DNA from: Gemmatimonadota bacterium
GTDB taxonomy: Bacteria; Gemmatimonadota; Gemmatimonadetes; Gemmatimonadales; JACORV01
Length of the DNA stretch: 64,000 nt
Assembly (NCBI GenBank): GCA_041476105.1
Contig: JBGOSS010000009.1
Location: forward strand, 2,798 to 66,797
Direction: 5' to 3'
Of the stretch, positions 1-16,410 are shown piece after piece. Below the pieces are notes generated by a model. That model saw only the letters and a list, made by a program, of their open reading frames with translations, had not been told where the DNA came from and ran no database searches. Made by a program: the position numbers and the translations under genes. Position 1 is the stretch's first letter. Each line of letters begins with the position of its first letter.

Positions 1-2259
1 CCCGGGACGCCGGTGCACCTCTATCTGCCTGGTCCGCACCGCGGCGTCTGGAACCTCGCAGGCCTCCAAGGCGTGAAGGACGTGATCCTGTGTGAGGCGC
101 TGCTCGATGCGCTGACGTTCTGGGTGGCGGGCGTCCCCCACGTGACGGCGAGCTACGGGATCAACGGGTTCACCGATGAGCTGTTCGAGGCGGTCCGGAG
201 CAGCGGCGCCGAGCGGGTGCTGATCGCCTATGATCGCGACGAAGCCGGCGAGCGCGGGGCGGCCCAGGTGGCGCGCCGGCTCGCGGCCGAGGGACTCAGG
301 TGTTACCGGGTGGTGTTCCCGCAGGGGCTCGATGTGAACGCCCATGCGCTGGCCTATCCGCCGGCCGAGCGGAGTCTGGGGGAGCGGCTGCGGCAGGCGG
401 TGTTCCTGGACCAGGCCGTGGCGCCGGCGCCGCGCCTAACGAGCGAGCCCGCCGCTTCCTTCTTAGCCGCTCCGGTAGTCGCTGACGAGCCAGAAACTGG
501 AGCGAGCGGGGTCGTCGGCGTTGTCGGGGCGCCGCCGCCCCCGCCCGCCGTCACCGCGCAGGTCACGGGCGAAGACGTCACGCTCGCGCTGGGCGACCGG
601 CAGTATCGCATCCGCGGCCTCGGGAAGAACACGTCGCCTGATCTCTTGAAGGTCAACGTGCTGGTGCGCCGGGGCGAGCGGGTGCACGTCGACACGTTGG
701 ACCTCTACGCGGCGCGGCCGCGGGCCGTGTTCGCGGCGCAGGCGGCGGCGGAGCTGGGCGTGGGGCCCGAGGTGGTGAAGAAGGACCTGGGCCAGGTGGT
801 GCTGGAGTGCGAAGCGCTGCTCGCCAATCAACCGAATGCCAGTGCGTCGGAGTCGGCACCGCCGATGAGCGATGCCGAGCGGACGGCGGCGCTGGCGTTG
901 CTGCGCGATCCCGCGTTGCTCGATCGCATCCTGGCTGACTTCACGCGCGCCGGCGTAGTGGGGGAAGAGACCAACAAACTCGTCGGCTACCTGGCGGCGC
1001 TCTCGCGCAAGCTGGCCGAACCGTTGGCGGTGATCGTGCAGAGCGCGTCGGCCGCGGGCAAGACGGCCTTGATGGACGCGGTGCTGGCGCTGGTACCGCC
1101 GGAAGAGCGGATCCAGTACTCCGCCGTGACGGGGCAAGCGCTCTTTTACCTCACCGGCGCCGACCTGCGCCACAAGATCCTCGCGATCGTGGAGGAAGCC
1201 GGTGCCGAGCGGGCGAGCTACGCACTGAAGCTGCTCCAGAGCGAGGGCGAGTTGACGATCGCCTCGACGGGCAAGGATCCCAAGACCGGGAAGCTGATCA
1301 CCCACGCCTACCGGGTCGAAGGGCCGGTGATGGTGTTCCTCACGACGACGGCCGTTGAGGTGGACGAGGAACTGCTGAACCGGGCGCTGGTGCTGACCGT
1401 GGACGAGGACCGCGACCAGACCCGGGCGATCCACGCCGCACAGCGCCAGCGGCGCACGCTGGCGGGCCGGCTCGCCCAGGCGGAGCGGGAGGCGTTGCTG
1501 GCGCTGCACCGCAACGCGCAGCGGCTGATCGAGCCGGTGGCCGTGGTGAACCCCTATGCGCCGCAGCTCACGTTCAGCGACGTGCAGACCCGAGCGCGGC
1601 GCGATCATGAGAAGTATCTCACCCTCATCGACGTGATCGCGCTGTTGCACCAGCACCAGCGGCCGCGGCGGACCGCGGAACGTGACGGCGCCACGCTCTC
1701 CTACATCGAGGTCACGCCGCGCGACGTCGCCCTGGCGAACCGGCTGGCGGCCGCGGTGCTGGGGCACTCGCTGGACGAGCTGCCCCCGCAGACGCGGCGC
1801 TGCCTGACGCGGCTCGACCAGTGGCTCACGGCGCAGTGCGCCGACCACCAGCGGGAGCGCAGCGACGTGCGGCTGTTGGCGCGCGAGGTGCGCGAGATCA
1901 CGGGGCTCGGGCCCACTCAGGTGAAGCTGCACCTGCGCCGGCTGGTGGACCTCGAGTACGTGCTGGTGCACCGGGCACCACGGGGCCAGGGCGTGGCCTA
2001 CGAGCTGGTCTATGAGGGCCAGGGCGTGGACGGGACGCCGTTCCTCACCGGCCTGCTCGATGCTGAGCGGCTGGTGAGCTACGATCGGGAGCGGTCGGGG
2101 TCTGGGGCGCAGCGGTCGGGGCCCGGTCGGCCCCTGGTCGGTGGGGTGTCGGGGGGAGGCCGGAGCCGGTCCGCCGAGCACAGCGTCTCCAACGGCAAGC
2201 AGTTAGGCAGTCCGCGGCTCGTGGCGCTCGAAACCGCACGTCCTGCAGCCGCCTCGTGA
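1..2259 (+). CDS. DNA primase-helicase-like protein (Toprim + P-loop NTPase + probable C-terminal winged helix), 5'-truncated by the window edge
   Basis: Frame 1 is open from base 1 (PGTPVHLYLPGPHRGVWN). Toprim motifs ILCEALLDALT and AYDRDEAG; Walker A-like QSASAAGKT; Walker B-like LAIVEE; C-terminal wHTH-like segment (REVREITGLGPTQVKLHLRRLVDLEY). Confidence 0.8.
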   Translation, partial: PGTPVHLYLPGPHRGVWNLAGLQGVKDVILCEALLDALTFWVAGVPHVTASYGINGFTDELFEAVRSSGAERVLIAYDRDEAGERGAAQVARRLAAEGLRCYRVVFPQGLDVNAHALAYPPAERSLGERLRQAVFLDQAVAPAPRLTSEPAASFLAAPVVADEPETGASGVVGVVGAPPPPPAVTAQVTGEDVTLALGDRQYRIRGLGKNTSPDLLKVNVLVRRGERVHVDTLDLYAARPRAVFAAQAAAELGVGPEVVKKDLGQVVLECEALLANQPNASASESAPPMSDAERTAALALLRDPALLDRILADFTRAGVVGEETNKLVGYLAALSRKLAEPLAVIVQSASAAGKTALMDAVLALVPPEERIQYSAVTGQALFYLTGADLRHKILAIVEEAGAERASYALKLLQSEGELTIASTGKDPKTGKLITHAYRVEGPVMVFLTTTAVEVDEELLNRALVLTVDEDRDQTRAIHAAQRQRRTLAGRLAQAEREALLALHRNAQRLIEPVAVVNPYAPQLTFSDVQTRARRDHEKYLTLIDVIALLHQHQRPRRTAERDGATLSYIEVTPRDVALANRLAAAVLGHSLDELPPQTRRCLTRLDQWLTAQCADHQRERSDVRLLAREVREITGLGPTQVKLHLRRLVDLEYVLVHRAPRGQGVAYELVYEGQGVDGTPFLTGLLDAERLVSYDRERSGSGAQRSGPGRPLVGGVSGGGRSRSAEHSVSNGKQLGSPRLVALETARPAAAS
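449..473 (+). repeat. 25-bp direct repeat, copy 1 (copy 2 at 3225-3249)
   Basis: CCGCCGCTTCCTTCTTAGCCGCTCC versus CCGCCGCTTCTTCCTTAGCCGCTCC, 23/25 identical. Confidence 0.7.
2094..2163 (+). repeat. Helically phased GTCGG repeats (iteron-like)
   Basis: GTCGG starts at 2094, 2115, 2126, 2137 and 2148 (spacings 21, 11, 11, 11), with degenerate GCCGG at 2159. Confidence 0.6.
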
Positions 2260-3242
2260 GTCGCCGTCGTAGCGACGTGCCCGAGCCGCTGGGCTCGCTG
2301 GTGGCCGAGCACGTGCGCGGCCTCCTGGCCCGCCGGTTCGCCGCGAGCACCGTCCGGAGCCGCCGGCGCGACCTGGCGCACTTCGCGGCGTGGTGCGGCC
2401 TGCGCGGGCTCACGCATCCCGGCGAGCTCACGTTGCCCATCCTGGAGCGCTACCGCCAGGCGCTCTACGAGGCGCGCAAGGCGGATGGCCACCCGTTAGG
2501 CTGGGGCGCGCAGGCCCAGAAGCTGGTCGCGGTGAAGCAGTTCCTGCGCTGGGCCACGCGGATGAAGCACGTGCCCTTCGACGCCGGCGCCGCGCTCGAG
2601 CTGCCGCGGCGGCCGCAGCACCTGCCGCGCACCGTGCTCTCGATATCGGAAGTCGAGCAGGTCCTGGCCCAGCCCGATCTCGCGGGCCCGATGGGCGTGC
2701 GCGACCGCGCCATCCTCGAAACCCTCTACTCGACGGGCATGCGCCGGCTGGAACTCCTGCAGCTCACGCTGCCCGACGTCGACGCCGGCCGGGGCGTGGT
2801 GTTCATCCGGGAGGGCAAGGGCCGCAAGGACCGCGTGGTGCCGATCGGCGAGCGGGCCCTGGAGTGGATCGAGCGCTATCGCTGCGACGTGCGGCCGCGG
2901 CTGGTGGTCGAGCCTGATCCGGGGACGGTGTTCCTGACCAGCCGAGGGCGGCCCGTGCGCTCCAACCGGCTCACCGAGCTGGTGCACCACTATGTCGGCC
3001 AGGCGGGCGTGGGGAAGACCGGCAGCTGCCACGTGTTCCGGCACACCATGGCGACGCTGATGCTCGAGGGCGGGGCCGACGTGCGCTACATCCAGGCGAT
3101 GCTGGGCCACGCCCAGCTCTCCACCACCGAGCTCTACACCCGGGTCTCGATCACCGCGCTCAAGGCGGTGCACCAGCGGACCCACCCGGCGCACCGCACC
3201 CGCGCCGAGCGCCAGCGTGCCGAGCCGCCGCTTCTTCCTTAG
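2256..3242 (+). CDS. XerC/XerD-like tyrosine recombinase (integrase)
   Basis: Complete catalytic set: TGMRR (R), GKGRK (K), HVFRH (HxxR), LGH, TELYT (Y). GTGA overlap with the primase stop. Confidence 0.93.
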   Translation: MSRRRSDVPEPLGSLVAEHVRGLLARRFAASTVRSRRRDLAHFAAWCGLRGLTHPGELTLPILERYRQALYEARKADGHPLGWGAQAQKLVAVKQFLRWATRMKHVPFDAGAALELPRRPQHLPRTVLSISEVEQVLAQPDLAGPMGVRDRAILETLYSTGMRRLELLQLTLPDVDAGRGVVFIREGKGRKDRVVPIGERALEWIERYRCDVRPRLVVEPDPGTVFLTSRGRPVRSNRLTELVHHYVGQAGVGKTGSCHVFRHTMATLMLEGGADVRYIQAMLGHAQLSTTELYTRVSITALKAVHQRTHPAHRTRAERQRAEPPLLP

Positions 3243-3249
3243 CCGCTCC
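3225..3249 (+). repeat. 25-bp direct repeat, copy 2, spanning the recombinase stop codon
   Basis: 23/25 identical to 449-473. Confidence 0.7.
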
Positions 3250-3352
3250 TCTACCTCACGAGCGGTGGGCGGGGCCACGCGGCCCAGCGGCGTCCGGACG
3301 GCCGCCTCGCCTGACGGCTCGGATCGGGCCCGTGCCCTCGCGCTGCGCGCTC

Positions 3353-3382
3353 GGTGCGCATAACGGGCCCATTATGCGCACG
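3353..3382. promoter_or_regulatory. Palindrome of two dif XerC-type arms
   Basis: GGTGCGCATAA-cgggccca-TTATGCGCACG. Left arm is identical to the E. coli dif XerC arm (GGTGCGCATAA); right arm is an inverted 10/11 copy; 8-nt spacer. Confidence 0.75.
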
Positions 3383-3413
3383 GGCCCTCGGCCGCCCGGC
3401 CGCTCGCCCGGCG

Positions 3414-3442
3414 GGTTAACATAACCGGGGGTTATGTTAACT
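3414..3442. promoter_or_regulatory. Palindrome of two dif XerD-type arms
   Basis: GGTTAACATAA-ccggggg-TTATGTTAACT. Right arm matches the E. coli dif XerD arm (TTATGTTAAAT) at 10/11; left arm is an inverted 9/11 copy; 7-nt spacer. Confidence 0.75.
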
Positions 3443-3597
3443 GGGCCGCGGGCCCCGCCCCTTCGAGCACGGTGCGTGGCGCCACTCCCCCTCGGAAGTG
3501 CACGTCGGGCCTTCGGAGTTCATATTACGATCAAGAACTGAAGGAGCTCAGCAGCTAAAGAGAAAAAGCGCAGCGGGTTAGAGGCGACAGATCGTAG

Positions 3598-4200
3598 GCC
3601 ACGCGGCCGATCTGGTGCTATCTGACGCAAGATCCGATCGGGCTCGCCGGTGGCGTCAATCTGTACAGTTACGCTGGCGGAAATCCGGTCGCGTTCTCGG
3701 ATCCGTTCGGCTTGGCCTGCAAAGATCGCGACATGCTGTGTCGCTTCCGTCGCGCCGCAAACATCGTGGCTGGAGGCATAGCTGGGGGTCTTGGCGGCGG
3801 AGGCATGGGGACGCTCCTGGGTACGGCTACCTGTGGCCCCCCAGTTTGCACCACAGTCGGCTTTGTTGTTGGAACCGTGTATGGCGCAGTCGGCGGCGCG
3901 GTCGCAGCTGGACGGCAATTCGATGAGTACAATCAGTCCGAGTTCTCCGAGTCGGAGGGGTCCAGCAGCGGCTTTGACAATCGTAGGTTCTTTGACCGCC
4001 GCATAAACAAACAGAAGGTAGAGCTTGACGTCGAACAGCGCGCAACTGGAAGAGTCGTCCAGGTTCGCGTCAATGGAGAAGAGACCATCCTCAATAGCCG
4101 CCAAGACATTGGGAGGCTACCAAAGGGCATCAAGAACGACCAGGCATTCCGCGATGCGGCTGAAAAGGCATTCCGCTACCTCGAAAGGCTCCAGCAATGA
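3598..4200 (+). CDS. Orphan Rhs core fragment plus C-terminal toxin tip (no canonical start before the core motif)
   Basis: Frame upstream of the listed ORF 3712 reads [32 protein letters not shown], the Rhs core end with the PxxxxDPxGL cleavage motif; in-frame TAG at 3595-3597. Tip has a Gly-rich hydrophobic segment and a polar C-terminal domain. Confidence 0.85.
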
Positions 4201-4598
4201 GCGCTCACCATCAGATTGTGGAGATCACACTCGACTATGAGGGCAGGAACGCGAACCAGAGGGGAGGAGTCCCCGTGCGGCCGGCACTAGGCGAGGAGCT
4301 GATGATCGCGATTCGGGATCATCCGGAGTGGGAGCATGAGGCGGGGGAGCCAGTCTACCCCGATAACCCCAGTCAGCTGCAAATACACCTTGTGGGAACT
4401 GCACGGGCGCTCGAGGCTCTCGGAACCTACTTGATCGCGTTGGCGCGTCTTGACACGGAGAATCCTGAGCCGTCCCCCAGCTTGGATGATGTCCACCACG
4501 CTGACGGCGGGACAATCCGCCTTCTACCACGTCGAGTGCAGGAACTGCCCAAGGGCAAGAAACGTGGCTCCGACTATCGCAGCAGGTTTTGCCGGTAG
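4197..4598 (+). CDS. Putative cognate immunity protein (possibly Imm32-like)
   Basis: 133 aa; ATGA overlap with the toxin stop; [21 protein letters not shown] resembles the Imm32 pattern (by eye). Confidence 0.6.
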
Positions 4599-5485: not shown

Positions 5486-6490
5486 TTAGTCGCCACCACC
5501 CGGTTTGGGATTCCGGTCGGCCCGCAGACAGAGCATCCGCTTTCGCTGCCGCAGCGAGATCCCGTGATCTAGCAACCGGCGATAGAGCGTCGTCCGCCCG
5601 ATGCCGAGATGCTTGGCGATACGCCCCGCATGCCACGCCGATGTTTCGCAGACCGCAAGCAGCGCGGCGCGTTCCTCGACCGCGGCCGACTGGAGGGGCG
5701 GCGTCCCGCTGACCGGACCAATCGACAAGGCGTCCTGAAGGGTCTCGAGGGGAATCTCACGGTCGATTGCCAGCCAGGACGCGCGCTCCATCACGTGGCG
5801 CAGCTCGCGAGCGTTCCCCGGCCAGGTGTACTGGAGGAGCATGTCGGTTGCCGAAGGTGGGAGAAGCTTGCCGCACGTCGCCGCGAACGCCCTGGCGAGC
5901 GGGACAATGTCCTCCCTCCGCTCCGTAAGCGCCGGCAGTTCGATCACGACGCCGGCGATGCGCTGAAGGAGATCGAGCCGGAACGTCCCAGCCGAAACCC
6001 GATCGCCCAGCCGGTCCTGGGTGGCCGCGATCAGACGGAAGTCTACCCGCCGACTGATCGTCTCGCCCACCCGCCGTACGCACATTGTGTCGAGCACACG
6101 CAGGAACTTGATCTGCGCCTCGAGCGGCATGCTGCAAATCTCGTCCAGGAAGACCGTCCCGGCCTCGGCGGCTTCGATCAGGCCGGCTCTCGAGTCCACG
6201 GCACCGCTGAAGGCACCACGGCAGCGGCCAAAGAGCTCCGACTCGATCAGCTCCTTGGGCAGCGCGCCGCAGTTGATGTCGATGAGCGGTCCCGGACGGC
6301 GGCCCCAGACGTGGATGTGCTGCGCCAACAGCTCCTTGCCCGAGCCCGTCGGACCCACGAGGAGGATGGGGACCCTCGACGGAGCGAACCTGCGCCCAAG
6401 CTCGACGGCGCGACGCATCGCCGGTGAATCGCCGATGATGGGCGCGAGCTCCGAATCGGGCGCACCGACCTTCCGGAGCGCCTCGCTCAT
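5486..6490 (-). CDS. Sigma-54-dependent enhancer-binding protein lacking an N-terminal sensor domain
   Basis: GPTGSGKE, ESELFG, GAFSGA, FLDEI, WPGNAREL and Fis-type HTH (LGIGRTTLYRRL); overlaps the gspD stop. Confidence 0.9.
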   Translation of the reverse strand: MSEALRKVGAPDSELAPIIGDSPAMRRAVELGRRFAPSRVPILLVGPTGSGKELLAQHIHVWGRRPGPLIDINCGALPKELIESELFGRCRGAFSGAVDSRAGLIEAAEAGTVFLDEICSMPLEAQIKFLRVLDTMCVRRVGETISRRVDFRLIAATQDRLGDRVSAGTFRLDLLQRIAGVVIELPALTERREDIVPLARAFAATCGKLLPPSATDMLLQYTWPGNARELRHVMERASWLAIDREIPLETLQDALSIGPVSGTPPLQSAAVEERAALLAVCETSAWHAGRIAKHLGIGRTTLYRRLLDHGISLRQRKRMLCLRADRNPKPGGGD

Positions 6491-7959
6491 GGCCGGCCCT
6501 CCCCCGGCAGGCGCGGCGCAGTCACGCTGTCCGCATCGGCGTCCGTCGCCAGGATGCGAGGTGTCAGAAAGAGGTAGAACTCGGTTGACTCTTCCCGGCG
6601 ACTCACGGCGCCGAACAGCCCGCCGAGAATGGGAATGCCGGAGAGAACGGGTACGCCTTGTCGGGAGCGGTCCGACTGTTGATCGCGCAGGCCACCGAGC
6701 ACCACCGTCTGACCGTTGCGCAGCAGCACGCGCGTGCTGGCCTCCCGGGTGGAGATGATGGGCGCTCCGAACTGCGTCTCGGCCGTCGCCGCGCTGACCT
6801 CCTGCTGGATCTGGAGCGACACGTAGCCATCGTGGTTGATCGTGGGCTTGACGATGAGCCGTGTGCCAACATCACGGTACTGCACGACCTGGTCGCGCGT
6901 CGGTGTGTCGGTCGGCAGCGACCGACTCACCTGCACGAAGGGTCGTTGTGAGCCGACCAGCAGCCTGGCTTCGGTATTGTTGGACGCCAGAAGCACCGGC
7001 CGCGACAGGATGGAGAGGTTGCCCCGGCTTTCCGCCGCACGGATTGTGGCGTACAAGTTCGGCCCACCTACGTTGAGCACGCGGATTACCAGGTCGCCGA
7101 GGCCGCCGCCCACGACCTCGCCGTCCGCCGACGCCCCGTGCCCGATGGACTGGGTTGGTACGAACAGGTCGGCGCCAAGGGAGAAGGTGTGGTCGCGGCG
7201 CGCCTCGACGATCAGGACCTCGATCAGGACCTGGAGCGGTCGGATGTCCAGCTCGTCCACCGCCCGCTGGATCACGTCGTAGTCGCGCTGGCCGGCGCGA
7301 ATGAGCAGCGAGTTCGTGATCTCGTCGGGAACGATGGTGAGAGGCCCCGCGAGGTTGGCCGCCGAGCCGGCGGTCGTCGGCGAGCGTTCCGTGGGTGTTC
7401 CGGCGGGCGGGACGTTCATGCGACGCAGTTCATCCGACAGCGTCCCTGCCGAAACGCCGGCCGAGCCCGAGAACTGTCCGCCTCCACCGAACAACTGGTT
7501 GACGGTCGCCGCCACGTCGGCGGCGCGGGCGTGCCGAAGGCGGATCACGAAGAGCCGCGGCTCGCTCTGCACCTGTGCCTGCGTTCGCGCCGCGTCGGGG
7601 AGTGCCGCCGGCGTCGCAAGACTCGTCGCGGGGTGTTCGCGGACGCGCCAGTACGCCGGTTCGTCCACCAGGTCGAGCTGCTGCGACTCAATCAGGCCAC
7701 GCAACAGATCCAGAACGGCGGCGCGCGGAACCGGCACCGGAGTCTGGAACGATACCCGGGTGCCGGGGACCCCGGTCATGAGCATCGGCTTGGAGAGATA
7801 GCGCGCGAGCGCCTGTACCACCCCGCGCAGGTCGGCATCCACAAACTCGACCGTCACGCTGTCGCGGAGCAGCCGCACCGGCTCCGGCAGCTGCGCGCCC
7901 AGGGGCTGCGCACCGCACAGGACGAGACCGAGGAGGAGGGAGGACCACCGAGCCGTCAT
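6487..7959 (-). CDS. gspD: Type II secretion secretin (short form)
   Basis: Signal peptide; N-domain IRLRHARAADVAATV and TNSLLIRA; LDIRPLQVLIEVLIVE; C-domain VPVLSGIPILGGLF and FLTPRI. Start at ATG 7959 (ATGA overlap). Confidence 0.9.
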   Translation of the reverse strand: MTARWSSLLLGLVLCGAQPLGAQLPEPVRLLRDSVTVEFVDADLRGVVQALARYLSKPMLMTGVPGTRVSFQTPVPVPRAAVLDLLRGLIESQQLDLVDEPAYWRVREHPATSLATPAALPDAARTQAQVQSEPRLFVIRLRHARAADVAATVNQLFGGGGQFSGSAGVSAGTLSDELRRMNVPPAGTPTERSPTTAGSAANLAGPLTIVPDEITNSLLIRAGQRDYDVIQRAVDELDIRPLQVLIEVLIVEARRDHTFSLGADLFVPTQSIGHGASADGEVVGGGLGDLVIRVLNVGGPNLYATIRAAESRGNLSILSRPVLLASNNTEARLLVGSQRPFVQVSRSLPTDTPTRDQVVQYRDVGTRLIVKPTINHDGYVSLQIQQEVSAATAETQFGAPIISTREASTRVLLRNGQTVVLGGLRDQQSDRSRQGVPVLSGIPILGGLFGAVSRREESTEFYLFLTPRILATDADADSVTAPRLPGEGRP

Positions 7960-8432
7960 TGCGGTCTCCGAAGCGTGAGGGTCCATGCGGTGTCGAGCCC
8001 GACCACGCGCACCTGGGCCTGTGAGATCGCCACCAGTCGAAGCCCGGCGACGACGTCGCCGACCCTCAGGGAGCGGCTGCCTTCGATCCCCGGCAGGCCC
8101 TCGAGCAGCGCGCGCGAGGTGTCGCCCAGGACGAGCCCTCGAAGCATGAGTTGCGGCCTGGGAGGTGGTGCGAGGGTGGCCGCTCCCTCGCCGAGCGCGG
8201 GTTGGTAGCGGACAGCGGCGGGTCGCCGCTCGAATCGGAACAGATCCCGCGACACGATCCCGAGGGCAAGCGAATCCACCGGGTAGGGCGGGTCACTGAC
8301 TGCGGCTTCCTGCCTTACATCACGGCGTTCCGGAGCAGCGGAATCGATCGGCGACGTGCCGGCGCGCACGCTCGCGCCCACGCCACCCGCGATCAGGAGC
8401 CAAAGGGCCATCTCAAACCACGCCTGCGTCAT
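7956..8432 (-). CDS. GspC-like T2SS component (N-terminal TM, no PDZ)
   Basis: Lies between gspM-like and gspD; TM helix; LRGLVLG...ALLEG...LRVGDVVAGLRLVAI resembles the GspC/PilP HR fold. Confidence 0.55.
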   Translation of the reverse strand: MTQAWFEMALWLLIAGGVGASVRAGTSPIDSAAPERRDVRQEAAVSDPPYPVDSLALGIVSRDLFRFERRPAAVRYQPALGEGAATLAPPPRPQLMLRGLVLGDTSRALLEGLPGIEGSRSLRVGDVVAGLRLVAISQAQVRVVGLDTAWTLTLRRPQ

Positions 8433-8992
8433 GGCGTCTCGCTCCCGCCGACGAACCAGCCGCCGATGGTGACCTCAAGTCGGAGGGTCTCGGTGCCGCC
8501 GGGTCCGCTCGGCTCCAGGGCTGTCATCGCGATCGAGGGAATCGTGAGTACCGGCGTGCGGCCTTCCATGTCCCGAAGGAACTGCGTGATGCCTGCGATG
8601 TCGCCCTCCAGATCGGCGCGAACTCTGACCGGTCGAATCGGCCCGGTTCCGGAGTCGGCAAGCGATTCGGCTCGCCGTACGCGCAGAGCCGCCCGGCTCG
8701 CCACCCCGTTGATCAGGGAGATGAGGGTGGCTGCCGCCTCGGATTGCGTGTGCCCTCCGACCAGCTTCGGCGCAAGCGCGACAAACTCCGTCAGCGCGAG
8801 ACGGAGCGAATCACGCGTCGCCGAGGCTCCCGCGAGGGCCGCGCTGGCTCCGCGGGCCGTCTCCACACGCGTCCGAGTACGCTCCTGGGCCTGCTGCATC
8901 CGAGCACGAAGCGATGGAACCGATCCAGCGAGCACCGTGCCCAACAGCACGACGCCGCCCGCGATCAGCGCGCGGCGATCACGTTCCATCAT
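8429..8992 (-). CDS. gspM: GspM/PilO-like inner membrane platform protein
   Basis: ERDRRALIAGG before a single TM, coiled coil, and ferredoxin-like C-terminus (LEGDIAGITQFLRDME). Confidence 0.65.
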   Translation of the reverse strand: MMERDRRALIAGGVVLLGTVLAGSVPSLRARMQQAQERTRTRVETARGASAALAGASATRDSLRLALTEFVALAPKLVGGHTQSEAAATLISLINGVASRAALRVRRAESLADSGTGPIRPVRVRADLEGDIAGITQFLRDMEGRTPVLTIPSIAMTALEPSGPGGTETLRLEVTIGGWFVGGSETP

Positions 8993-10179
8993 TGCCGGCT
9001 TGCCAGTCGTGCGACGAGGTGGAATTGGTCGCGTTCAACCACGCGAGTGCCGACACTGATCCTTTGGCGGGTTGGTGGGGACTCGAGGTGGACATTGGAC
9101 AATCCCGGCAGGCGCTCGAGGGCTACCACGGCCTGGTCCGCGACTGGTGCGTAACCGCTCAGACGTAGCGTGGAATCCGGGTCGATGCGCAGCGAGGCCA
9201 GCGTGATGGAATCGTTGAGGCTGCGTGTCAGCTCGGCGAGCAGCGAGAGATGGCGGGAGCGCCGGTGCTCGGCCGCCGCCATTGTCCGGAGCGCGCCAGC
9301 GGCCGCGTCGAGATCGCGCCGCACCACCATGATGCCATTCAACCGAGGCGCCAGTGTCGCCAGCTCGGCGGCGGCGGTGCGGTCCGCGGCGCTGTACCGC
9401 AGCGCCGTGATGACGAACGCGCCGGCCCATGTAACCGCAGCGATCGCCGCGAGCCGGAGCAGGCGCGTTGTGCGCCCCCGCTCCGCCCGCTGCCGGGACA
9501 TGACAGGCAGCAGGTCCAGATGGGGTCGCGCCCGCGTAAGGGAGAACGCGGCCGCGTAGAGCGCTGACGTCTCGTGCAACGCTGCGAGCGACGGATGCCA
9601 GGCAGTTTCGCCGGGTTCGTTACCGGTGTGCTGCACGCGCCACGCCCGCCCGCGCGTGAGTTCGACGTGCAAGACACCGCTCGAGGTCGGCAGAACGACA
9701 GAGCCCTCACGGTACGATGTCGCGAATGGCAATGCCTCGAGGGCCGGACCGATACACTCCACGTCGAGTCCGGCCTGCTCGCATCCCGCCACGACTCGCT
9801 TCACGACATCCTCGGATGCGGCGGCCGCGACCAGGACGCGATGCCCTGGCGCAATGCTGACGATTCGCGCGTCGGTGACCAGCGGGCCGTGCCCGTTTCG
9901 GAACAGGCGGTCGCACTCGAGCGCGACATGCCGGCGTGCCTGGGAAGGCCGAAATGGAGGAGCGGGATCCAGAGCCCGAAGTCTGGCGACGTCGGGTCCC
10001 AGGCCGATGCGAGCACGGCGCAGGGGCTCGGGTGCGTCGCTCGCCAAACGCGCGAAGACCTCGACCAGGTCATCTGGACTGCTGTAGGACACGCTCGCGG
10101 CCCAGTGCACCCGGCGCCGATCCGCCAGCAGCGCGTGGACCGCGGTCGTCGTCACACTGATGCCGAGCCGCCGTCTCAC
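8989..10179 (-). CDS. gspL: GspL-like (PilM-like N-terminus, TM, PilN-like C-terminus)
   Basis: LGISV N-terminus, DLLP before the TM, PilN-like LAELTRSL...LRLSGYA; operon position. Confidence 0.65.
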   Translation of the reverse strand: MRRRLGISVTTTAVHALLADRRRVHWAASVSYSSPDDLVEVFARLASDAPEPLRRARIGLGPDVARLRALDPAPPFRPSQARRHVALECDRLFRNGHGPLVTDARIVSIAPGHRVLVAAAASEDVVKRVVAGCEQAGLDVECIGPALEALPFATSYREGSVVLPTSSGVLHVELTRGRAWRVQHTGNEPGETAWHPSLAALHETSALYAAAFSLTRARPHLDLLPVMSRQRAERGRTTRLLRLAAIAAVTWAGAFVITALRYSAADRTAAAELATLAPRLNGIMVVRRDLDAAAGALRTMAAAEHRRSRHLSLLAELTRSLNDSITLASLRIDPDSTLRLSGYAPVADQAVVALERLPGLSNVHLESPPTRQRISVGTRVVERDQFHLVARLASRQ

Positions 10180-10973
10180 GGAAGCCGCCGCCGTATGATT
10201 GCGAGGCGTCCCGGTTGTTCGGTCACGAGCAGGTCGAGCGTTTCGGTGAGACCGTGCGGGGGCTTGCCAGCCGTCCCCGTCGCGGTCAGTCGGAGCACCG
10301 ATGGCTGAAAGTCGAGCGTGCCAGAGAGGTGGGCGTACTCGCGCGCCAGGCTCTCCCGACCGGCCCGCGACAGGAGCCCGCCAAGCTCATCGAGCGAGCC
10401 AAGCGGGCGACGGGCTTCACGGCGCGCCGCGAGAACCGACACTGCCTCACGGCTGAGGCCGGACAATGCCAGCAGCACGGCAGGCGGAGCGTTGACGCTG
10501 ACGGCACCGCGGCCCTCGACTGTGAGGAGTGCGACCAGCTCCGCGGGCAGGTGAATCTCTTCCTCAAGCTGGGCGATGCTCTCGATGGCCTGGCCGGCGC
10601 GAAACCGAACGATGCGATGGGCCCACATCGTGGCGGAACCCGGTCCTACACCGGTCAGCGCGAAGGCTCTTTCTATCGTCGCGCTGTCGGACTGATTGAC
10701 GTTGAGAGCCGCGAAGGGATTCTCCAACCGCCACCGGCAGCTGAGACCGTCCCCGAGCGCCTCCGAGCCGTAGTCTTCAGTCGAGCCTTCCGCTCGCCGG
10801 CCGCGTGCGATCTCGGCGCACGCCTCGGCTGCCCATCGTGCGCGCGCGAGACCTATCCGGTTGCGCGAGGCCCGGTCGCCCATTCGGAGTATGCCCATCC
10901 ACGCCGCGAGCGCACCGGTGAGCGCCGCGATTGTCCAGAGGACTGCCATCAAGGCGAAGCCGTGCTTCGTCAT
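10176..10973 (-). CDS. gspK: Minor pseudopilin GspK
   Basis: Start MTKHG|FALMAVLW (no Glu5, typical of GspK); LNVN motif; ATGA overlap with gspJ. Confidence 0.75.
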   Translation of the reverse strand: MTKHGFALMAVLWTIAALTGALAAWMGILRMGDRASRNRIGLARARWAAEACAEIARGRRAEGSTEDYGSEALGDGLSCRWRLENPFAALNVNQSDSATIERAFALTGVGPGSATMWAHRIVRFRAGQAIESIAQLEEEIHLPAELVALLTVEGRGAVSVNAPPAVLLALSGLSREAVSVLAARREARRPLGSLDELGGLLSRAGRESLAREYAHLSGTLDFQPSVLRLTATGTAGKPPHGLTETLDLLVTEQPGRLAIIRRRLP

Positions 10974-11494
10974 TCGCTCCCCACGAGGAGCAGCAGCGTG
11001 TCTGGCTTCCCCAGGCGCCAGAGCCTGAAACGGATGCCGAGTGGCAGCGAAGTGGGCGACAGGTATCCACGAACCCATGACTCGTTGGCGCCGGCGTGCG
11101 GGAGGTAGTCCAGCGCCAGGCTGTCGACACCGACAGCGACAACCAGCGTATCGAACTGCGATACGACCGCCAGCCCGGGGTCGATTGCAACGACGGTGTA
11201 GGACCGCAGGATCGGCCAGCCGCGGGACCGGCTGCTCCACGCGCTGAAGAGGATCCGATCCCGCTCGCCGTGAAAGGGAATGGCCCCAGGGCTCGCGACG
11301 TCGATGGACTCGACCAGCTTTCCCAGCAACCGGAGGCCATTCGCGTCGCGGTCGAGCCGCTCGCGTCGCTCGGTGAGCCGGCGAGCGTCCTCCGTCACGT
11401 CGCCAAACAGCCGGGCCGCTGTGAGCACCAGGACCGAGCCGATGGTGAGTCCTACGACGAGCTCCAGCAGCGTAAAGCCTCGACTATCGCGCAT
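10970..11494 (-). CDS. gspJ: Minor pseudopilin GspJ-like
   Basis: Prepilin motif RG|FTLLELVVGL. Confidence 0.7.
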   Translation of the reverse strand: MRDSRGFTLLELVVGLTIGSVLVLTAARLFGDVTEDARRLTERRERLDRDANGLRLLGKLVESIDVASPGAIPFHGERDRILFSAWSSRSRGWPILRSYTVVAIDPGLAVVSQFDTLVVAVGVDSLALDYLPHAGANESWVRGYLSPTSLPLGIRFRLWRLGKPDTLLLLVGSE

Positions 11495-11849
11495 CGAGGT
11501 CTTCACGATACACGACAGTCACAAGATCGTCGCGCTGTGGGTTGGCGGCGCGCCGGAGCGCGATGCGGAACAGGGTGCGCGTCGGACGCTGGATACCGAC
11601 CAGGTACGGGCCGACGACCGACACACCCAGCCGCAGCTCCAGGTCGGATCGCGACAGCAGCACGTGGGCCGTAAGGAGGCGATCCTCATCCGCCAGCTCG
11701 GCCTCGCGCTGTTGCGCTTCGGCGAGCGATCGGCTCTCGGCATCCACCAGCCTGACGATGCCAAGACCGGCGACGGCGAGGATGGTCGTCGCGGCCATCA
11801 CCTCCAGCAGCACCACGCCGCGCTCAGCGCTTCGCACGGACGGTCCCAC
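11484..11849 (-). CDS. gspI: Minor pseudopilin GspI-like (start may be GTG 11837)
   Basis: RG|VVLLEVMAA, ~120 aa. Confidence 0.65.
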   Translation of the reverse strand: MGPSVRSAERGVVLLEVMAATTILAVAGLGIVRLVDAESRSLAEAQQREAELADEDRLLTAHVLLSRSDLELRLGVSVVGPYLVGIQRPTRTLFRIALRRAANPQRDDLVTVVYREDLDAR

Positions 11850-12123
11850 TCAACGGGTCCACGACGATGGTGACGCCGTCCGCCGTGAGACGCCCGCCGT
11901 TCGATGACCCGTCCGGAAGGAAACGGATGACGACCGAGCCCGAGTGCCACACCGTTGGTTTGCCGAATCGAATCGCCGACTCGCGGGCATCGAGCACCGC
12001 TCGCAGCGCGGCCGCCGAAGGCGAGGCCATGCTCTGACGCCAGGCCAACCCGCTCAGTCCCGCGATGAGGCCGATGATCGCCAGCGAGACGATCAGCTCG
12101 AGGAGGGTCAAGCCCCTACTCAC
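11824..12123 (-). CDS. gspH: Short minor pseudopilin GspH-like
   Basis: RG|LTLLELIVSLAIIG; IRFLPDGSSNGG typical of GspH/FimT. Confidence 0.7.
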   Translation of the reverse strand: MSRGLTLLELIVSLAIIGLIAGLSGLAWRQSMASPSAAALRAVLDARESAIRFGKPTVWHSGSVVIRFLPDGSSNGGRLTADGVTIVVDPLSGTVRAKR

Positions 12124-13304
12124 GGACCCCCCGGTCTCACGCTGTAGAGCGCCTGGAGCAGGCCAGCCGCGACGAGCGCCACCATCGCGGCAAAGCCGAC
12201 GATGAGGGCGGGTTCGAGGAGGCCGATCAGCGTCCCGATGCGTTGCTCGGCGTTCTGTGCCTCGATCGCGGCCGCCCGGCCGAGGAGTTCCGGCAAGCGG
12301 CCCGCGCCGTCGCCGATTGCGGCCATCTGAAGCGCGAATGGGGTGAAGGCGCGCTCCGCTTCCAGGGCCGCACTAAGCGAGGCGCCCTCCGCCACCCGTT
12401 CGGTGGCGCGTCCGAGGCGCTCCGCGACCAGAGTGTCACCGACGCTCTCCTGTGCAATGCGAATCGCGCGCAGCGCAGGAGTACCCGTGCCGAGCAGGGC
12501 CCCCAGGGCGCGGGCCGCCCGCGCCGTCGCGCGGGCGTGCAGGATCGCTCCGATGATCGGGTACGCGTGCAGAAGGCTCGATGCCCGGGTGCGATGGCTC
12601 CTGCTCCACCGAATGACGGTGGCGGCTCCCAGAACGAAGAGGGTCGCGAGCACCAACCAGTGCGACCGGAGAGTCATCGAGGCGCCGAGCAGCAAGCGCG
12701 TCAGCGGTGGGAGGACCGCATCCACGTCCGCCAGGAGCGCCGCGAAGCGTGGCACCACGAACAGCAGGATTCCGAGAAGTGAAGAACCGCCAACAGTCAG
12801 GAGGATCGCCGGGTAGGCCAGGGCCGCGCGCATCCGGGCGGCGCTCTCGGCGCTCCGCTCAAGCTCGTCGGCCGCCGCGGCGAGTCCGGAGGCGACTCCG
12901 AGCCCGTTCTCCGAAGCGTGCACCAGCCCCACGGCTATGGGGGAAAAGAAGAACGGCTCGGCACTCAGTGCGGCCCCGAGCGACGCTCCTTCGCGGACCC
13001 CGGCCTCGACGCGGGCCAGCGACTCGGCCAGCTGTCCCGACACCGCTCGGCGCGTGGCCTTGAGGGCGAAAGCCAGCGGCACCCCGGCCTCCATCAGCGA
13101 GGCGAGGCTGCGGAACGCAGTCGCCTGCGAGCGGGCGTCAGGACGCCGCCGCCAGCGCTCTAGCGGCGCCGGTTCGACCGCGACAGCGAGCAGCCCGCGG
13201 CGCTCCAGAACGGCGAGGGCTTCGGGTCTGGAGGCGACCTCGAGCCGTCCGCGCACGACGCCACCATCCAACGGGCGCACCGCCTCGAAACGGAATCCGC
13301 TCAC
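12120..13304 (-). CDS. gspF: T2SS inner membrane protein F
   Basis: LASLMEAGVPL, ALAYPAILL, LPPLTRLL, LLEPALIV. Confidence 0.9.
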   Translation of the reverse strand: MSGFRFEAVRPLDGGVVRGRLEVASRPEALAVLERRGLLAVAVEPAPLERWRRRPDARSQATAFRSLASLMEAGVPLAFALKATRRAVSGQLAESLARVEAGVREGASLGAALSAEPFFFSPIAVGLVHASENGLGVASGLAAAADELERSAESAARMRAALAYPAILLTVGGSSLLGILLFVVPRFAALLADVDAVLPPLTRLLLGASMTLRSHWLVLATLFVLGAATVIRWSRSHRTRASSLLHAYPIIGAILHARATARAARALGALLGTGTPALRAIRIAQESVGDTLVAERLGRATERVAEGASLSAALEAERAFTPFALQMAAIGDGAGRLPELLGRAAAIEAQNAEQRIGTLIGLLEPALIVGFAAMVALVAAGLLQALYSVRPGGP

Positions 13305-13732
13305 TGGCTGATGTCCGCGTCTTCACCGACGCCGCCCGGACGTCCGTCGCGCCCGTGCGTCAACAGGTCGTATCCCGCGGGGTTGACCACCCCCGGCCTG
13401 GCGAAGACGTAGGCGTGGCCCCACGGATCAAGCGGGATCGGGCGTCGCAGGTAAGGGCCGCGCCAGTTGCGTGGCGCCGGATCGCCGGCGGGTTGGGCCC
13501 GCAGCGCGTCGAGGCCCTGTGCGGTCGACGGGTAGTAGTCGTTGTCGAGCCGGTATTGATCCAGCGCGAGCGCGAACAACTCCATCTGTGCCTTGGCGGC
13601 CGATACCTTCGCGTCCCCGACATTGCGGAAGACCATTGGCGCAACCAGCCCCGCGAGCATCGCGATCACCACGATCACCACCATGATCTCGATGAGTGTG
13701 AACCCGCCGCGGCCGTCAGTCCTGGGTGACAC
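13301..13732 (-). CDS. gspG: Major pseudopilin GspG
   Basis: GG|FTLIEIMVVIVVI; ALDQYRLDN, YPSTAQGL, WRGPYL, DPWG. GTG start at 13732 preceded by GAGGAAG. Confidence 0.95.
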   Translation of the reverse strand: MSPRTDGRGGFTLIEIMVVIVVIAMLAGLVAPMVFRNVGDAKVSAAKAQMELFALALDQYRLDNDYYPSTAQGLDALRAQPAGDPAPRNWRGPYLRRPIPLDPWGHAYVFARPGVVNPAGYDLLTHGRDGRPGGVGEDADISQ

Positions 13733-15203
13733 GGAGCACTTCCTCGATCGTGGTGATGCCGGCCTGCACCTTGCGCCAGCCGTCGTCACGGAGCGTGACC
13801 ATGCCTTCCCGGCGCGCGATTTCGCGCAGACCGGTGAGGTCGTCGCCGCGCGCCGCCGCCAGCTTCACCCCATCGGTGACCCTGAGGAGCTCGAACAAGC
13901 CGGTGCGGCCGCGGTAACCGGTGTTACGGCACTCGGGGCAGCCCCGACCGCGCTCGAGCGAGACCCGGCCGACGGGCCGGTGTGCCAGAAGCGCGACCGC
14001 CTCGGCATCGGGTCGGTAGCGTTCCCGGCAATGGGCGCACACCCGGCGGACCAGGCGTTGCGCGAGCACGCCCTCGAGCGCGGCGACGACCATGTAGGAC
14101 TGGACCCCCAGATTCGCGAGACGCGTCAGTGCCGATACGGCATCGTTGGTATGAAGCGTCGAAAAGACCAGGTGCCCGGTCATGGCCGCCTGGACGGCGA
14201 TCTGCGCGGTCTCGGTGTCCCGCATTTCGCCCACCATGATGACGTCGGGGTCCTGACGGAGCAGGGAGCGCAACGCGGAGCTGAAGGTCATGCCGGCCCG
14301 GGCATTCACTTGCACCTGGGTCACGCCGTCGAAGTGGTATTCGACTGGATCCTCGACCGTGATGATCTTCTCGGCGCTCGCGCGCCGCAGGCCGAGTGCG
14401 GCGTACAGGGTGGTGGTCTTGCCGCTTCCGGTCGGGCCAGTCGCCAGAATGATGCCGTGTGGCCGCTCCGCGAGCCGGCGAACGGCGGCCAGATCCTCCG
14501 GCGCGAGACCCAGCTCATCGAGACCGACGGGCCGGCCGCCACGATCCAGCAACCGTACGGCCACCGATTCGCCGTACAGCGTGGGTACGGTGGACACCCG
14601 CAGGTCGAGCTCCCGCTCCTCGAGCCGAAGGCGGATCCGGCCGTCCTGGGCGATGCGGCGCTCGGCGATGTCCAGGCCGGCGAGGAGCTTGACCCGGGAC
14701 ACGACCGCCGCTTGGAGCCCCTTGGGCGGACAGGGGACCTCGCTGAGGACGCCGTCCAGGCGGAAGCGTACCCGCAGGCCCTCGCGCGCTGACTCGAGAT
14801 GGATGTCGCTGGCTTGGGACTGGTAGGCTTCGCGGATCAGCAGGTTGACGAAGCGGATGACCGGTGGCTGGCTGGCAAGATCCCGTGCGTCCGCGTACGG
14901 AGCATCGCCCTCTGTGGCTGTCTGGACCGCGTCATTGAGGTCGCGAACCAGCTCGACCACCGACTCCGCTGCGCTGAATGCGCGGCGAATGCCGTCCTCG
15001 AGCTCGATTGCGGTGACTGGCAGTAGATCGAGAGGGATCCCGAACGAAATCTCGAGGTCGTCCAGCACCTCGATGGCGGGTTCGCCCGAGACGGCGACCC
15101 TGAGCCGTTCGTTCGCGATCTCGAGCGGGAGGATCCCGTTGTACTGGAGGTAGGCAGCCTCGAAGGCATCCGGCAGAGGCAGTTTCGATTGAATCTCGGC
15201 CAC
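13716..15203 (-). CDS. gspE: T2SS ATPase GspE
   Basis: ASDIHLE, GPTGSGKTTTLY, TVEDPVE, LRQDPDVIMVGEMRD, TGHLVFSTLHTN, CAHC/CPEC zinc site. Confidence 0.95.
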   Translation of the reverse strand: MAEIQSKLPLPDAFEAAYLQYNGILPLEIANERLRVAVSGEPAIEVLDDLEISFGIPLDLLPVTAIELEDGIRRAFSAAESVVELVRDLNDAVQTATEGDAPYADARDLASQPPVIRFVNLLIREAYQSQASDIHLESAREGLRVRFRLDGVLSEVPCPPKGLQAAVVSRVKLLAGLDIAERRIAQDGRIRLRLEERELDLRVSTVPTLYGESVAVRLLDRGGRPVGLDELGLAPEDLAAVRRLAERPHGIILATGPTGSGKTTTLYAALGLRRASAEKIITVEDPVEYHFDGVTQVQVNARAGMTFSSALRSLLRQDPDVIMVGEMRDTETAQIAVQAAMTGHLVFSTLHTNDAVSALTRLANLGVQSYMVVAALEGVLAQRLVRRVCAHCRERYRPDAEAVALLAHRPVGRVSLERGRGCPECRNTGYRGRTGLFELLRVTDGVKLAAARGDDLTGLREIARREGMVTLRDDGWRKVQAGITTIEEVLRVTQD

Positions 15204-15236
15204 GCTCGACTCCGAAGTCGGAACGCAGGCTGGGGA

Positions 15237-15252
15237 AGCACAAGACGTGCCG
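15237..15252 (-). promoter_or_regulatory. Sigma-54 (-24/-12) promoter upstream of gspE
   Basis: Minus strand CGGCACGTCTTGTGCT: GG-N10-GC with GGCACG and TGCT cores, ~35 nt upstream of the gspE start. Confidence 0.75.
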
Positions 15253-15327
15253 CGGCGGCTCGCGCGCGGTGGGGCGACGCAAGCGCGTGGCGGTAGCCGA
15301 GTTACAGAATCCGGCTTTCACGCAACC

Positions 15328-16410
15328 TCAGGACAGAGACGGATCGCCACGCACATTTCCTTCGGCCGGAATGTGCGCCGGGCCACGCTCGTCCCCGGCC
15401 CGCGCTTCCCGGTCGGCCAGGTATTTCGAGATGGTGTTGCGATGCGCCCCAATCAGGGCGGCCGCTCGATCGATCCGATTCCCCGTGCGCCACAGCGCCC
15501 ATTCGACCACCCGGGCGTTCTCGGAGGGATCGCCATGTGGCTTGAATCGTGGCGCGATGCGGACGTGCGGTGGAAGGTGGTCGAACCGTACCATGGTGTC
15601 CCCGACCGCGTGCAGGTACGCCGCCTCAACAACTCCGCGCAACTCTCGAAGATTGCCTGGCCAGGGCGCCGCTTCGAGAGCGGGCATGACGTCGGGAGAA
15701 AACGCACATGGTCCCGTCACGCCCGTCACTTCGCGACAGGATTCAAGGAAGGTCTGGGCGAATGCGGCAATCACATCGCGTTGGTCCGCCAGCCCCGAAA
15801 CCGTGACAATGCAGTATCCCAATCGGTAGCGAAGATCCGGCAGCAGGTCACCGCGCTCCATCATCTCGTCCGGGCAATCGCGGGTGCAGATGATTACCCG
15901 GCAGAGGATCGGGACATCCCGCTCGCCCCCGAGCGGCAGGTAGACGCCGGTGGACAGCGCGCGCAGAAGGAGGGCCTGAACGCTCGTGGGCAGGAGGTGG
16001 AATTCGTCGAACAGTGCGGTCCCGGAACGCGCGCGCTCGAAGACTCCGTGGCCGCGGCCGACCGCGCCGGTGTAGGCACCCGGCACATGTCCGAACAACT
16101 GGTCGTACGCCATCGATTCCACCAACTCCATGGCGCTGATGGCGACGAAAGGGCTGCCGCATCTGGGTCCCTCGTCGTGCATCCAGCGAGCCAGCGTCGT
16201 CTTCCCGGCGCCCGTCGGGCCGACCAGAATCACAATGCCGCTGGCAGCCACGTACGGCCTGGCCTGCTCATAGGCCTGACTTGTTTGAGAACCGACACGG
16301 ACGATTCTCGCGGACGCGCCGGTGCTGATGGATCGGTGCATTCGAGAGAAACCTTGTTCAAGGAACCGCCAACCTACGGAAGGCGTGTCGGGTTCGTAAC
16401 CTGTCAGCAA
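15328..16410 (-). CDS. Second sensor-less sigma-54 enhancer-binding protein (start uncertain)
   Basis: GPTGAGKT, QLFGHVPGAYTGA, FDEFH, PDLRYRL, WPGNLREL, C-terminal HTH (AAALIGAHRNTISKYL). Confidence 0.85.
   Translation of the reverse strand: MLTGYEPDTPSVGWRFLEQGFSRMHRSISTGASARIVRVGSQTSQAYEQARPYVAASGIVILVGPTGAGKTTLARWMHDEGPRCGSPFVAISAMELVESMAYDQLFGHVPGAYTGAVGRGHGVFERARSGTALFDEFHLLPTSVQALLLRALSTGVYLPLGGERDVPILCRVIICTRDCPDEMMERGDLLPDLRYRLGYCIVTVSGLADQRDVIAAFAQTFLESCREVTGVTGPCAFSPDVMPALEAAPWPGNLRELRGVVEAAYLHAVGDTMVRFDHLPPHVRIAPRFKPHGDPSENARVVEWALWRTGNRIDRAAALIGAHRNTISKYLADREARAGDERGPAHIPAEGNVRGDPSLS

Follow-up and report, generated by a model that had tools for sequence, protein, structure and literature searches.

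Two self-palindromic, dif-like sequences follow a tyrosine recombinase gene in a Gemmatimonadota bacterium, raising the question of what kind of site they form and which enzyme reads it. The locus lies in a 64,000-nucleotide stretch of contig JBGOSS010000009.1 (assembly GCA_041476105.1), here called the window. A preliminary description treated it as a dif site split into one palindrome of XerC arms and one of XerD arms, recombining as folded single-stranded DNA or as a hairpin-ended linear form through the element's own recombinase and/or host XerCD. The integron attC site is likewise a folded single-strand site, read by the integrase, and palindromic hairpin telomeres are known from protelomerase systems. 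In CTX attP(+), two inverted dif-like half-sites fold into one XerC/XerD site, according to the parts consulted of PMC3442271, PMC4246890, and PMC5357621. We present here an analysis of this locus, its homologs, and the Rhs toxin genes in which it resides.

Results

The unit consists, in order, of an XRE gene, a primase-helicase gene, a recombinase gene, the paired site, and an Rhs tip with an immunity gene (Table 1). The XRE gene is divergent and lies upstream of the Toprim-helicase gene. The primase CHC2 zinc finger is located upstream of the window (contig C9:2149 onward; E 5e-23), and between the CHC2 and Toprim parts, also upstream of the window, the frame shifts once in this assembly (L164:2460-2500, contig C9), so that the window's copy of the element may be inactive; the change may be a real inactivation or an assembly error. 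The helicase part groups with PF27228 DNA-primase-family clusters, and no solved relative of it was found by sequence.

The recombinase retains all six catalytic residues and has PF00589 as its sole Pfam match; no protelomerase gene was found. It scores below the cut-offs of true XerC and XerD and is therefore not the host XerC or XerD. The host xer homologs lie on contigs C70 and C22, and the single candidate dif is likewise on another contig. Against the IntI integrase model TIGR02249, the recombinase scores 108 bits, with a cut-off of 265. Its solved relatives are XerD, XerA, IntI4, and XerH; the enzyme is XerD-like, with 1a0p as its best solved relative.

The unit sits between an Rhs core carrying one tip (C9:60-1244) and an orphan core end carrying another, 31 of whose 32 core residues match the upstream core. 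The 23-bp block carrying the codons L-T-Q-D-P-I-G is a short direct repeat at both ends of the element inside the target gene, as in tyrosine-integrase elements that restore the 3' end of the gene they enter, and would be the attachment core that bounds the element. No Pfam family was found for the tip, and family searches with the candidate immunity gene gave no match. Beyond that gene, an open reading frame at 4882-5430 matches the CRR6 family barely above the Pfam cut-off (26.9 versus 25 bits). Directly downstream of the element, on the minus strand (5486-16410), is a type II secretion-like cluster between two sigma-54 activator genes, with a secretin, pseudopilins, an ATPase, and a GspF-like protein recognized from the translations.

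Table 1. Features of the element within the window
Feature	Position	Strand	Details
Primase-helicase gene, 3' part (Toprim and P-loop helicase)	1..2259	+	Toprim_2, E 1.8e-15
(Y)nTTAGCNGC, copy 1	460..470	+	In primase gene, on rare TTA codon
Three CGGTCGG repeats at primase 3' end	2092..2130	+	
Tyrosine recombinase, PRK01287/NF002331 subfamily	2256..3242	+	409.7 bits, cut-off 371
(Y)nTTAGCNGC, copy 2	3235..3246	+	
Outer inverted repeat	Left arm 3267..3287, right arm 3441-3461	+ (left arm)	21 nt, 81% complementary
XerC-type arm palindrome	3353..3382	.	8-nt spacer
CCCTCGG	3385..3391	+	Complementary to relatives' D spacer CCGAGGG
XerD-type arm palindrome	3414..3442	.	7-nt spacer
(Y)nTTAGCNGC, copy 3	3551..3562	-	Inverted relative to copy 2
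Orphan Rhs core end and C-terminal tip	3622..4200	+	TIGR03696, E 1.8e-4, below cut-off
23-bp block, Rhs L-T-Q-D-P-I-G codons	3622..3644	+	Identical to contig C9:720-742
Candidate immunity gene	4197..4598	+	By position only; overlaps the tip's stop codon

The recombinase stop codon is followed after 110 nt by GGTGCGCATAA-N8-TTATGCGCACG, a XerC-type arm pair, and after a further gap of 31 nt by GGTTAACATAA-N7-TTATGTTAACT, a XerD-type arm pair. Direct rereading bore out the sequences, spacers, and distances first given for both palindromes. Their description as AT-rich islands holds for the arms but not for the spacers, which are G/C-rich. The names C and D denote likeness to the arms of E. coli dif and of candidate host dif sites found by pattern; the comparison with the host candidates agrees with an Xer type, the right arm of the D palindrome being identical to the candidate host D arm at 10 of 11 bases. 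The pattern CATAA-N6..10-TTATG occurs twice in the window, both times at the palindromes, a number reached in none of 100 shuffles. Across the genome, CATAA-N5..12-TTATG has three matches, two of them at the paired site. Public contigs of runs X1 (maybe the source sample) and X3 reproduce both palindromes without difference, which rules out an assembly artifact, and one contig of run X4 also covers the second. One contig joint in run X3 skips the D palindrome and probably comes from a related element.

An outer inverted repeat, absent from the preliminary description, encloses both palindromes. None of 100 shuffles folds as well as the surrounding 301-nt region (z -4.6); in the predicted fold each palindrome forms its own hairpin within the outer stem, and both predicted folds of the site favor separate hairpins. 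By inspection, there was no continuous pairing of the outer with the inner arms in a nested manner, nor between the two spacers as a loop-loop duplex. In 7 of 7 window-type sites, the CCCTCGG sequence, which the preliminary description also lacks, has an offset of 13 relative to the right C arm. Rfam matched nothing at positions 3000-3800.

From 118 recombinase matches, 91 distinct loci were kept, including the window. A paired site lies behind the recombinase in 40 of them; the site is conserved next to homologous recombinases. None was found in 39 of the 79 loci with at least 1.4 kb of downstream sequence (displaced or gapped in two of the 39), so the site is dispensable; 12 further loci were too short. 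The site matrix was trained on the first sites found, which are among those scored. Its threshold was reached by 3 of 182 shuffles, and four nested calls score 26 to 29, within the shuffle range.

The commoner arrangement, D-spacer-C ... C-spacer-D, is a nested isomer found in 34 of the 40 paired sites, including two that the script labeled otherwise because of variant C arms. The other six have the window's C-C/D-D order (the window, L054, L056, L059, and two G035 variants), and two more such sites (L055 and L057) are on contigs without a recombinase. The C-C/D-D order is thus real but is not the rule of the family. It is common to lineages whose recombinases are only 57% identical and is known from few independent lineages. 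By this comparison, the window's palindromes are best read as a rearranged, lineage-specific isomer of a conserved double dif-like site. G035 has 12 Rhs cores and three paired sites, one behind each recombinase, and one Enterobacter element has its nested site upstream of the XRE gene instead. At L066:15341-15371, the first XRE gene is preceded by a single D-D site in place of the complete nested site seen in later units, as if recombination or slippage between similar arm ends had deleted the rest.

Covariation was scored in 28 unique nested sites against shuffled controls. Their half-sites are 13 to 93 nt apart, with spacers of 5 to 10 and 6 to 7 nt that are mostly unequal in length (equal in 7 of 28). 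The first three D-side spacer bases pair in 28, 28, and 22 of the 28 sites (shuffled, 13.2, 24.3, and 12.6); the corresponding counts for the C side are 22, 20, and 11. Position -4 of the C arm pairs in all 28, with four pair types (shuffled, 10.3), and the outer D bases are unpaired. With one site per host or lineage, both best positions pair in 20 of 20, compared with 10.3 and 6.3 after shuffling. Slid controls for the first D-side spacer base and C-arm -4 gave 1.5 and 2.3, i.e., chance, and the control for the third D-side base was mildly raised. The earlier suggestion of a folded single-strand substrate has good support, above all from this covariation, and the nested isomer very probably acts as a folded strand.

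In the window-type isomer, all nine inner positions of the C stem pair in all seven sequences, with one two-sided change, and the D stem has two two-sided changes as well as mismatches; the two-sided changes are at C-9, D-7, and D-9. Mismatches interrupt the G035 D hairpin, and the arm core of one copy contains an additional base. The D spacer reads CC-NNN-GG in 7 of 7 sites, with CC:GG closing the loop. We consider it reasonably likely that this isomer also acts folded, as one C hairpin and one D hairpin, presumably working like the nested isomer.

The toxin genes, a context that the preliminary description did not recognize, record a second kind of exchange. In aligned Rhs core ends, element-type upstream DNA meets the core at the first DP codon or immediately ahead of it. 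Three same-tip pairs differ upstream as far as -13, -13, and -1 from that codon and have 0 to 1 mismatches in the 90 nt after the junction, compared with at least 9 in 90 nt for different tips. Where the upstream DNA is the same (eleven pairs), divergence begins at +2 to +14; the junction pairs of both kinds are not mutually independent. The 12 bp of VENN codons are common to cdiA and seven orphan junctions in an Enterobacter CDI array, with no longer match found by blastn. Shared cores are 12 to 14 bp in the E. coli and Enterobacter arrays and 23 bp in the window, so that tip exchanges map to Rhs DPxG or CdiA VENN codons with 12 to 23 bp shared. Such cores are shorter than RecA normally needs. 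Exchange at cores this short suggests that the element's own recombinase integrates site-specifically. The simplest reading is that integration would swap the 3' end of the gene for a new tip, and the core alignments make it quite probable that this recombinase acts at DPxG or VENN.

The arrays also undergo homologous recombination, as indicated by long fragments of the Rhs type (484 bp, 95%) and by a Shigella circle. The latter is an 8.8-kb circular record equal to one repeat unit. It was rejected as proof of excision at the paired site because its crossover lies elsewhere, in a tract of approximately 190 bp in the 5' end of the recombinase gene. A Lonsdalea circular record contains two element-type DP junctions. 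In E. coli EC77 (L145:14124-14270; an assembly with many frameshifts), a partly duplicated Rhs core end seems to have its junction at the second DP motif and may reflect off-target insertion.

Candidate replication signals accompany the site. The strict motif (Y)5TTAGCHGC occurs three times in the 4.03-Mb genome, each time in this element, and the looser form (Y)nTTAGCNGC recurs at the same places in related elements. Copies 2 and 3 of the looser form bracket the paired site in inverted order, and inverted TTAGCNGC signals do so both in the window and in G035. The (Y)nTTAGCNGC motif is a candidate priming or binding signal, and the CGGTCGG repeats are candidate origin iterons. The primase 3' ends of L003, L012, L021, L039, L061, L066, and L092 contain clusters of short direct and inverted repeats, likewise candidate iterons, that, read by eye, differ in sequence between elements. 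An E. coli repeat block at this position is duplicated over 155 bp. An AAA(A/C)(G/T)GCAC(G/A)TC-like motif with TACGA/TCGTA words, noted by eye at 3495-3510 and 2228-2245 of the window, recurs in relatives before DP/VENN cores and at the primase 3' end.

The same gene order was found in relatives of the host and in E. coli, Enterobacter, Paraburkholderia, and Lonsdalea. The copies occupy Rhs, CdiA, or hemagglutinin loci, where two to four units often stand in tandem, with a tip and immunity gene after each one. Presence is patchy: 8 of 151 relatives of the host; 8, 11, and 7 of 201 genomes in three proteobacterial orders; and 54 of 5426 complete E. coli genomes. The recombinase family comprises at least 6470 clusters. 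No recombinase relative was found in phage records at E 1e-50, and IMG/VR searches with the recombinase protein and the D palindrome returned none; 17 IMG/VR pattern matches have no recombinase or primase match and were rejected as unrelated or single dif-like sites. A plasmid search with the site DNA gave chance matches only, and no RNA data set was listed as containing the sequence. A metagenome pattern scan yielded eight loci, five of which have both palindromes beside a recombinase or Rhs core; L053, L058, and L060 have no D palindrome and no recombinase or Rhs core and were dropped.

Several further arrangements were observed. A 13-kb circular Leptospira record (L146) contains a primase-helicase, a recombinase, and a ParA-like open reading frame, and no dif-like pair was found in it. 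In the G327 array (L150-L151), four units alternate two site subtypes (D-side TGC and CGC), and small open reading frames with the common leader SGEIRL...RQMPVLAQSQ, which are another toxin or secreted class, replace Rhs cores. Remnants of SymE/XRE genes lie beside orphan tips without primase and recombinase (L092:34019-34195, L093:18749-18991, and L061-L063), which suggests that many orphan cassettes are relics of the element.

To identify the reader, the arms were compared with the dif sites of eight hosts, which are candidates found by pattern. The unusual host D arm of G325 is matched fully or almost fully by that of the element (20 to 21 of 22, versus at most 17 for other hosts). The elements of G035 also fit their own host best (17, versus at most 16), as do the C arms of G630 (13, versus at most 11). 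G000 and G344 give no more than a tie, as does one of the two elements of G420, and in G327 and G624 the elements mostly fit other hosts better. Arms thus track host dif in three of eight hosts and tie or fail in five. The D arm TTATGTTAA(G/C)T is found in 62 of 121 genomes of the host's order, and the window's is the same. In one family of that order (f2; L156-L158), the candidate dif D arm is TTATGTAAACT, unlike those of families f1 and f3.

Among 78 aligned recombinases, the six catalytic residues are kept with or without a site, and site presence is scattered over the recombinase tree. The helix that aligns with the recognition helix of XerD is variable. With arms that follow dif in the three hosts with unusual arms and a site that is patchy across clades, host XerCD is probably the reader.

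Discussion

The locus contains a feature that is real and conserved, a CTX-like folded Xer site in a new isomer. In the scheme that we propose, the element recombinase would excise the unit and insert it at the DPxG codons of Rhs genes, swapping tips; the primase-helicase would copy the unit, exposing single strands; host XerCD would bind the folded site on this single-stranded DNA; and one D-side strand exchange between like copies would release or monomerize unit circles. The parts differ in strength. That the unit replicates is likely. The chain as a whole, with a folded, XerCD-read self-site resolving units alongside tip swapping by the element's own recombinase, has about an even chance of being correct, and we are slightly less confident of a single D-side exchange between like copies that releases or monomerizes circles during replication.

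Host XerCD is likelier than the element recombinase as the reader, so of the two enzymes first suggested the host's is favored, and the main rival is a hybrid. By that account, which we consider unlikely, the folded site is recombined by the element enzyme, acting by itself or in place of XerC with host XerD as partner, as integron integrase recombines attC. The site mostly lies directly behind the recombinase gene; the C arm core varies between lineages and the D core is nearly fixed, which fits an element enzyme paired with host XerD; and the window's C arms fit their own host worst among the eight (14 of 22). Yet in G325 recombinases of different clades precede nearly one and the same site, two E. 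coli MP1 recombinase genes that are 79% identical have near-identical sites, many intact enzymes have no site found beside them, and the enzyme has another candidate target in DPxG/VENN.

Less likely again is that the hairpins bind XerCD without recombining, as an origin, terminator, or segregation signal, or that the window isomer is a relic of a nested site. The inverted signals that bracket the site in the window and in G035 would suit such a role, and no crossover at the site was found; polymorphisms among seven E. coli and Shigella units, compared by eye, show no clear break there. Against this, pairing adjoins the predicted cleavage position, as ligation needs according to the part of PMC3442271 consulted, and the window isomer has been kept with two-sided changes between lineages with such divergent recombinases.

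Of nearly the same low probability is a hairpin-ended linear replicon, in which a cruciform would undergo exchange between top and bottom strands to give hairpin-capped ends of the excised element. The invariant CC-NNN-GG of the D spacer suits hairpinning, and both isomers would offer two C and two D stems if both strands fold. Such a replicon needs no spacer-spacer pairing, yet in nested sites this pairing is near perfect; small element records are annotated as circular; and the right end of the window isomer would be without a C arm. The hairpin-ended form raised in the preliminary description is also unsupported by the contigs of four runs, for which no strand-change joint was listed, contigs being prone to drop rare forms.

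Least probable, to the point of being remote, is that the element is an IMEX whose folded site integrates at host dif via XerC, as CTX does: the nested isomer has the same architecture as attP(+) and, among the sites compared, the first C-side spacer base equals that of host dif in 12 of 17, but all three bases match in only 1 of 17 on the C side (L101) and 0 of 17 on the D side, the window fails on both sides, and no copy adjoins a candidate dif in the eight hosts compared (several of these assemblies being fragmented), copies sitting instead in toxin loci. With spacers unlike host dif and no copy at dif, the partner of the folded site that XerCD would read is more likely another copy of the site.

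Among known systems, CTX attP(+) is the closest in form. Its attP1 and attP2 half-sites lie up to approximately 90 nt apart, usually with unequal spacers (PMC4246890, in the part consulted), and the nested isomer likewise has inverted half-sites, unequal spacers, and imperfect arm pairing and would undergo a single strand exchange. Relative to the CTX descriptions consulted, the best-paired side of the nested isomer is D instead of C, and the window's self-palindromic isomer has no counterpart in those descriptions. The element also has a spacer unlike host dif, with no copy found at dif, and in place of a phage it carries a primase-helicase gene and a recombinase gene of its own. Of the IMEX traits, inverted half-sites that fold into one are present in the nested isomer and, by analogy only, in the window isomer; three-base homology to dif next to the XerC cleavage position was confined to 1 of 17 sites, integration at dif was not found in the eight hosts compared, and the element does have its own recombinase.

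Integrons resemble the element in having a folded site with compensatory changes, exchangeable cassette arrays, and an adjacent tyrosine recombinase. Here, however, the enzyme is not IntI, there is one folded site per unit rather than per cassette, and the joints of the cassettes fall at toxin codons rather than at the folded site. Protelomerase systems share the palindromic arm pairs and a short, partly self-complementary center, whereas the element has a XerD-like enzyme, short palindromes that do not reach into the flanks, and no fold-back form in contigs. By the tests run, the element is not a member of the IMEX, integrons, or protelomerase replicons.

In the Rhs displacement model, a circular intermediate with a core fragment and tip pushes the old tip downstream, and Jackson 2009, Koskiniemi 2014, and Hagan 2023 ascribe tip exchange to homologous recombination, in the parts consulted of these papers (PMC2935791, PMC3967940, and PMC10539506). 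The consulted part of Jackson 2009 (PMC2935791) states that no integrase was known with Rhs. In the element, by contrast, an integrase and replicon travel with the tip, and the joints lie at short cores. Parts of this neighborhood have been described: Kawano 2007 (PMC1891008) reported SymE-cHTH-Prim-Hel, i.e., a helix-turn-helix gene and DnaG-type primase-helicase with Rhs/hemagglutinin genes, and Zhang 2012 (PMC3482391) reported XerC/D genes beside polyimmunity loci; the consulted parts of both describe no integrating recombinase-primase element, dif-like site, or crossover core. Martinkus 2026 (Curr Biol 36:176), as cited in the consulted part of bioRxiv 10.64898/2026.07.13.738213, describes Xer-dependent systems beside Rhs poly-immunity arrays in Xenorhabdus and Photorhabdus, which may overlap with this element. 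XafT activates XerD (PMC6744903, in the part consulted). Recombinase terms are absent from Poole 2011 (PMC3150448), and the Neisseria paper PMC10210955 covers host dif only. No description of the element, site, or cores was found in the openly accessible literature searched.

How Rhs and CdiA genes acquire new tips is a standing question, for which the prior model, in the parts of its sources consulted, is homologous recombination of a hypothetical episome. With this element family, tip exchange gains a replicon, an integrase, and a crossover core that can be mapped; the family's frequency among complete E. coli genomes, together with the number of recombinase clusters, makes the tip-swap question testable in laboratory E. 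coli. More tentatively, these elements may form a cross-phylum class of self-replicating toxin-tip shuttles, with an integrase acting at the tip-boundary codons of polymorphic toxins (Rhs DPxG, CdiA VENN, and others) to load new tip-immunity pairs, primase-helicase copying via single-stranded DNA, and XerCD resolution at a folded self-site. Through the paired site, the range of folded-strand Xer recombination grows to include more than the integration of phages at dif. The window's isomer, a single XerC hairpin with a single XerD hairpin, would, if active, be a new shape of Xer substrate, with a geometry new to the CTX/Xer literature examined.
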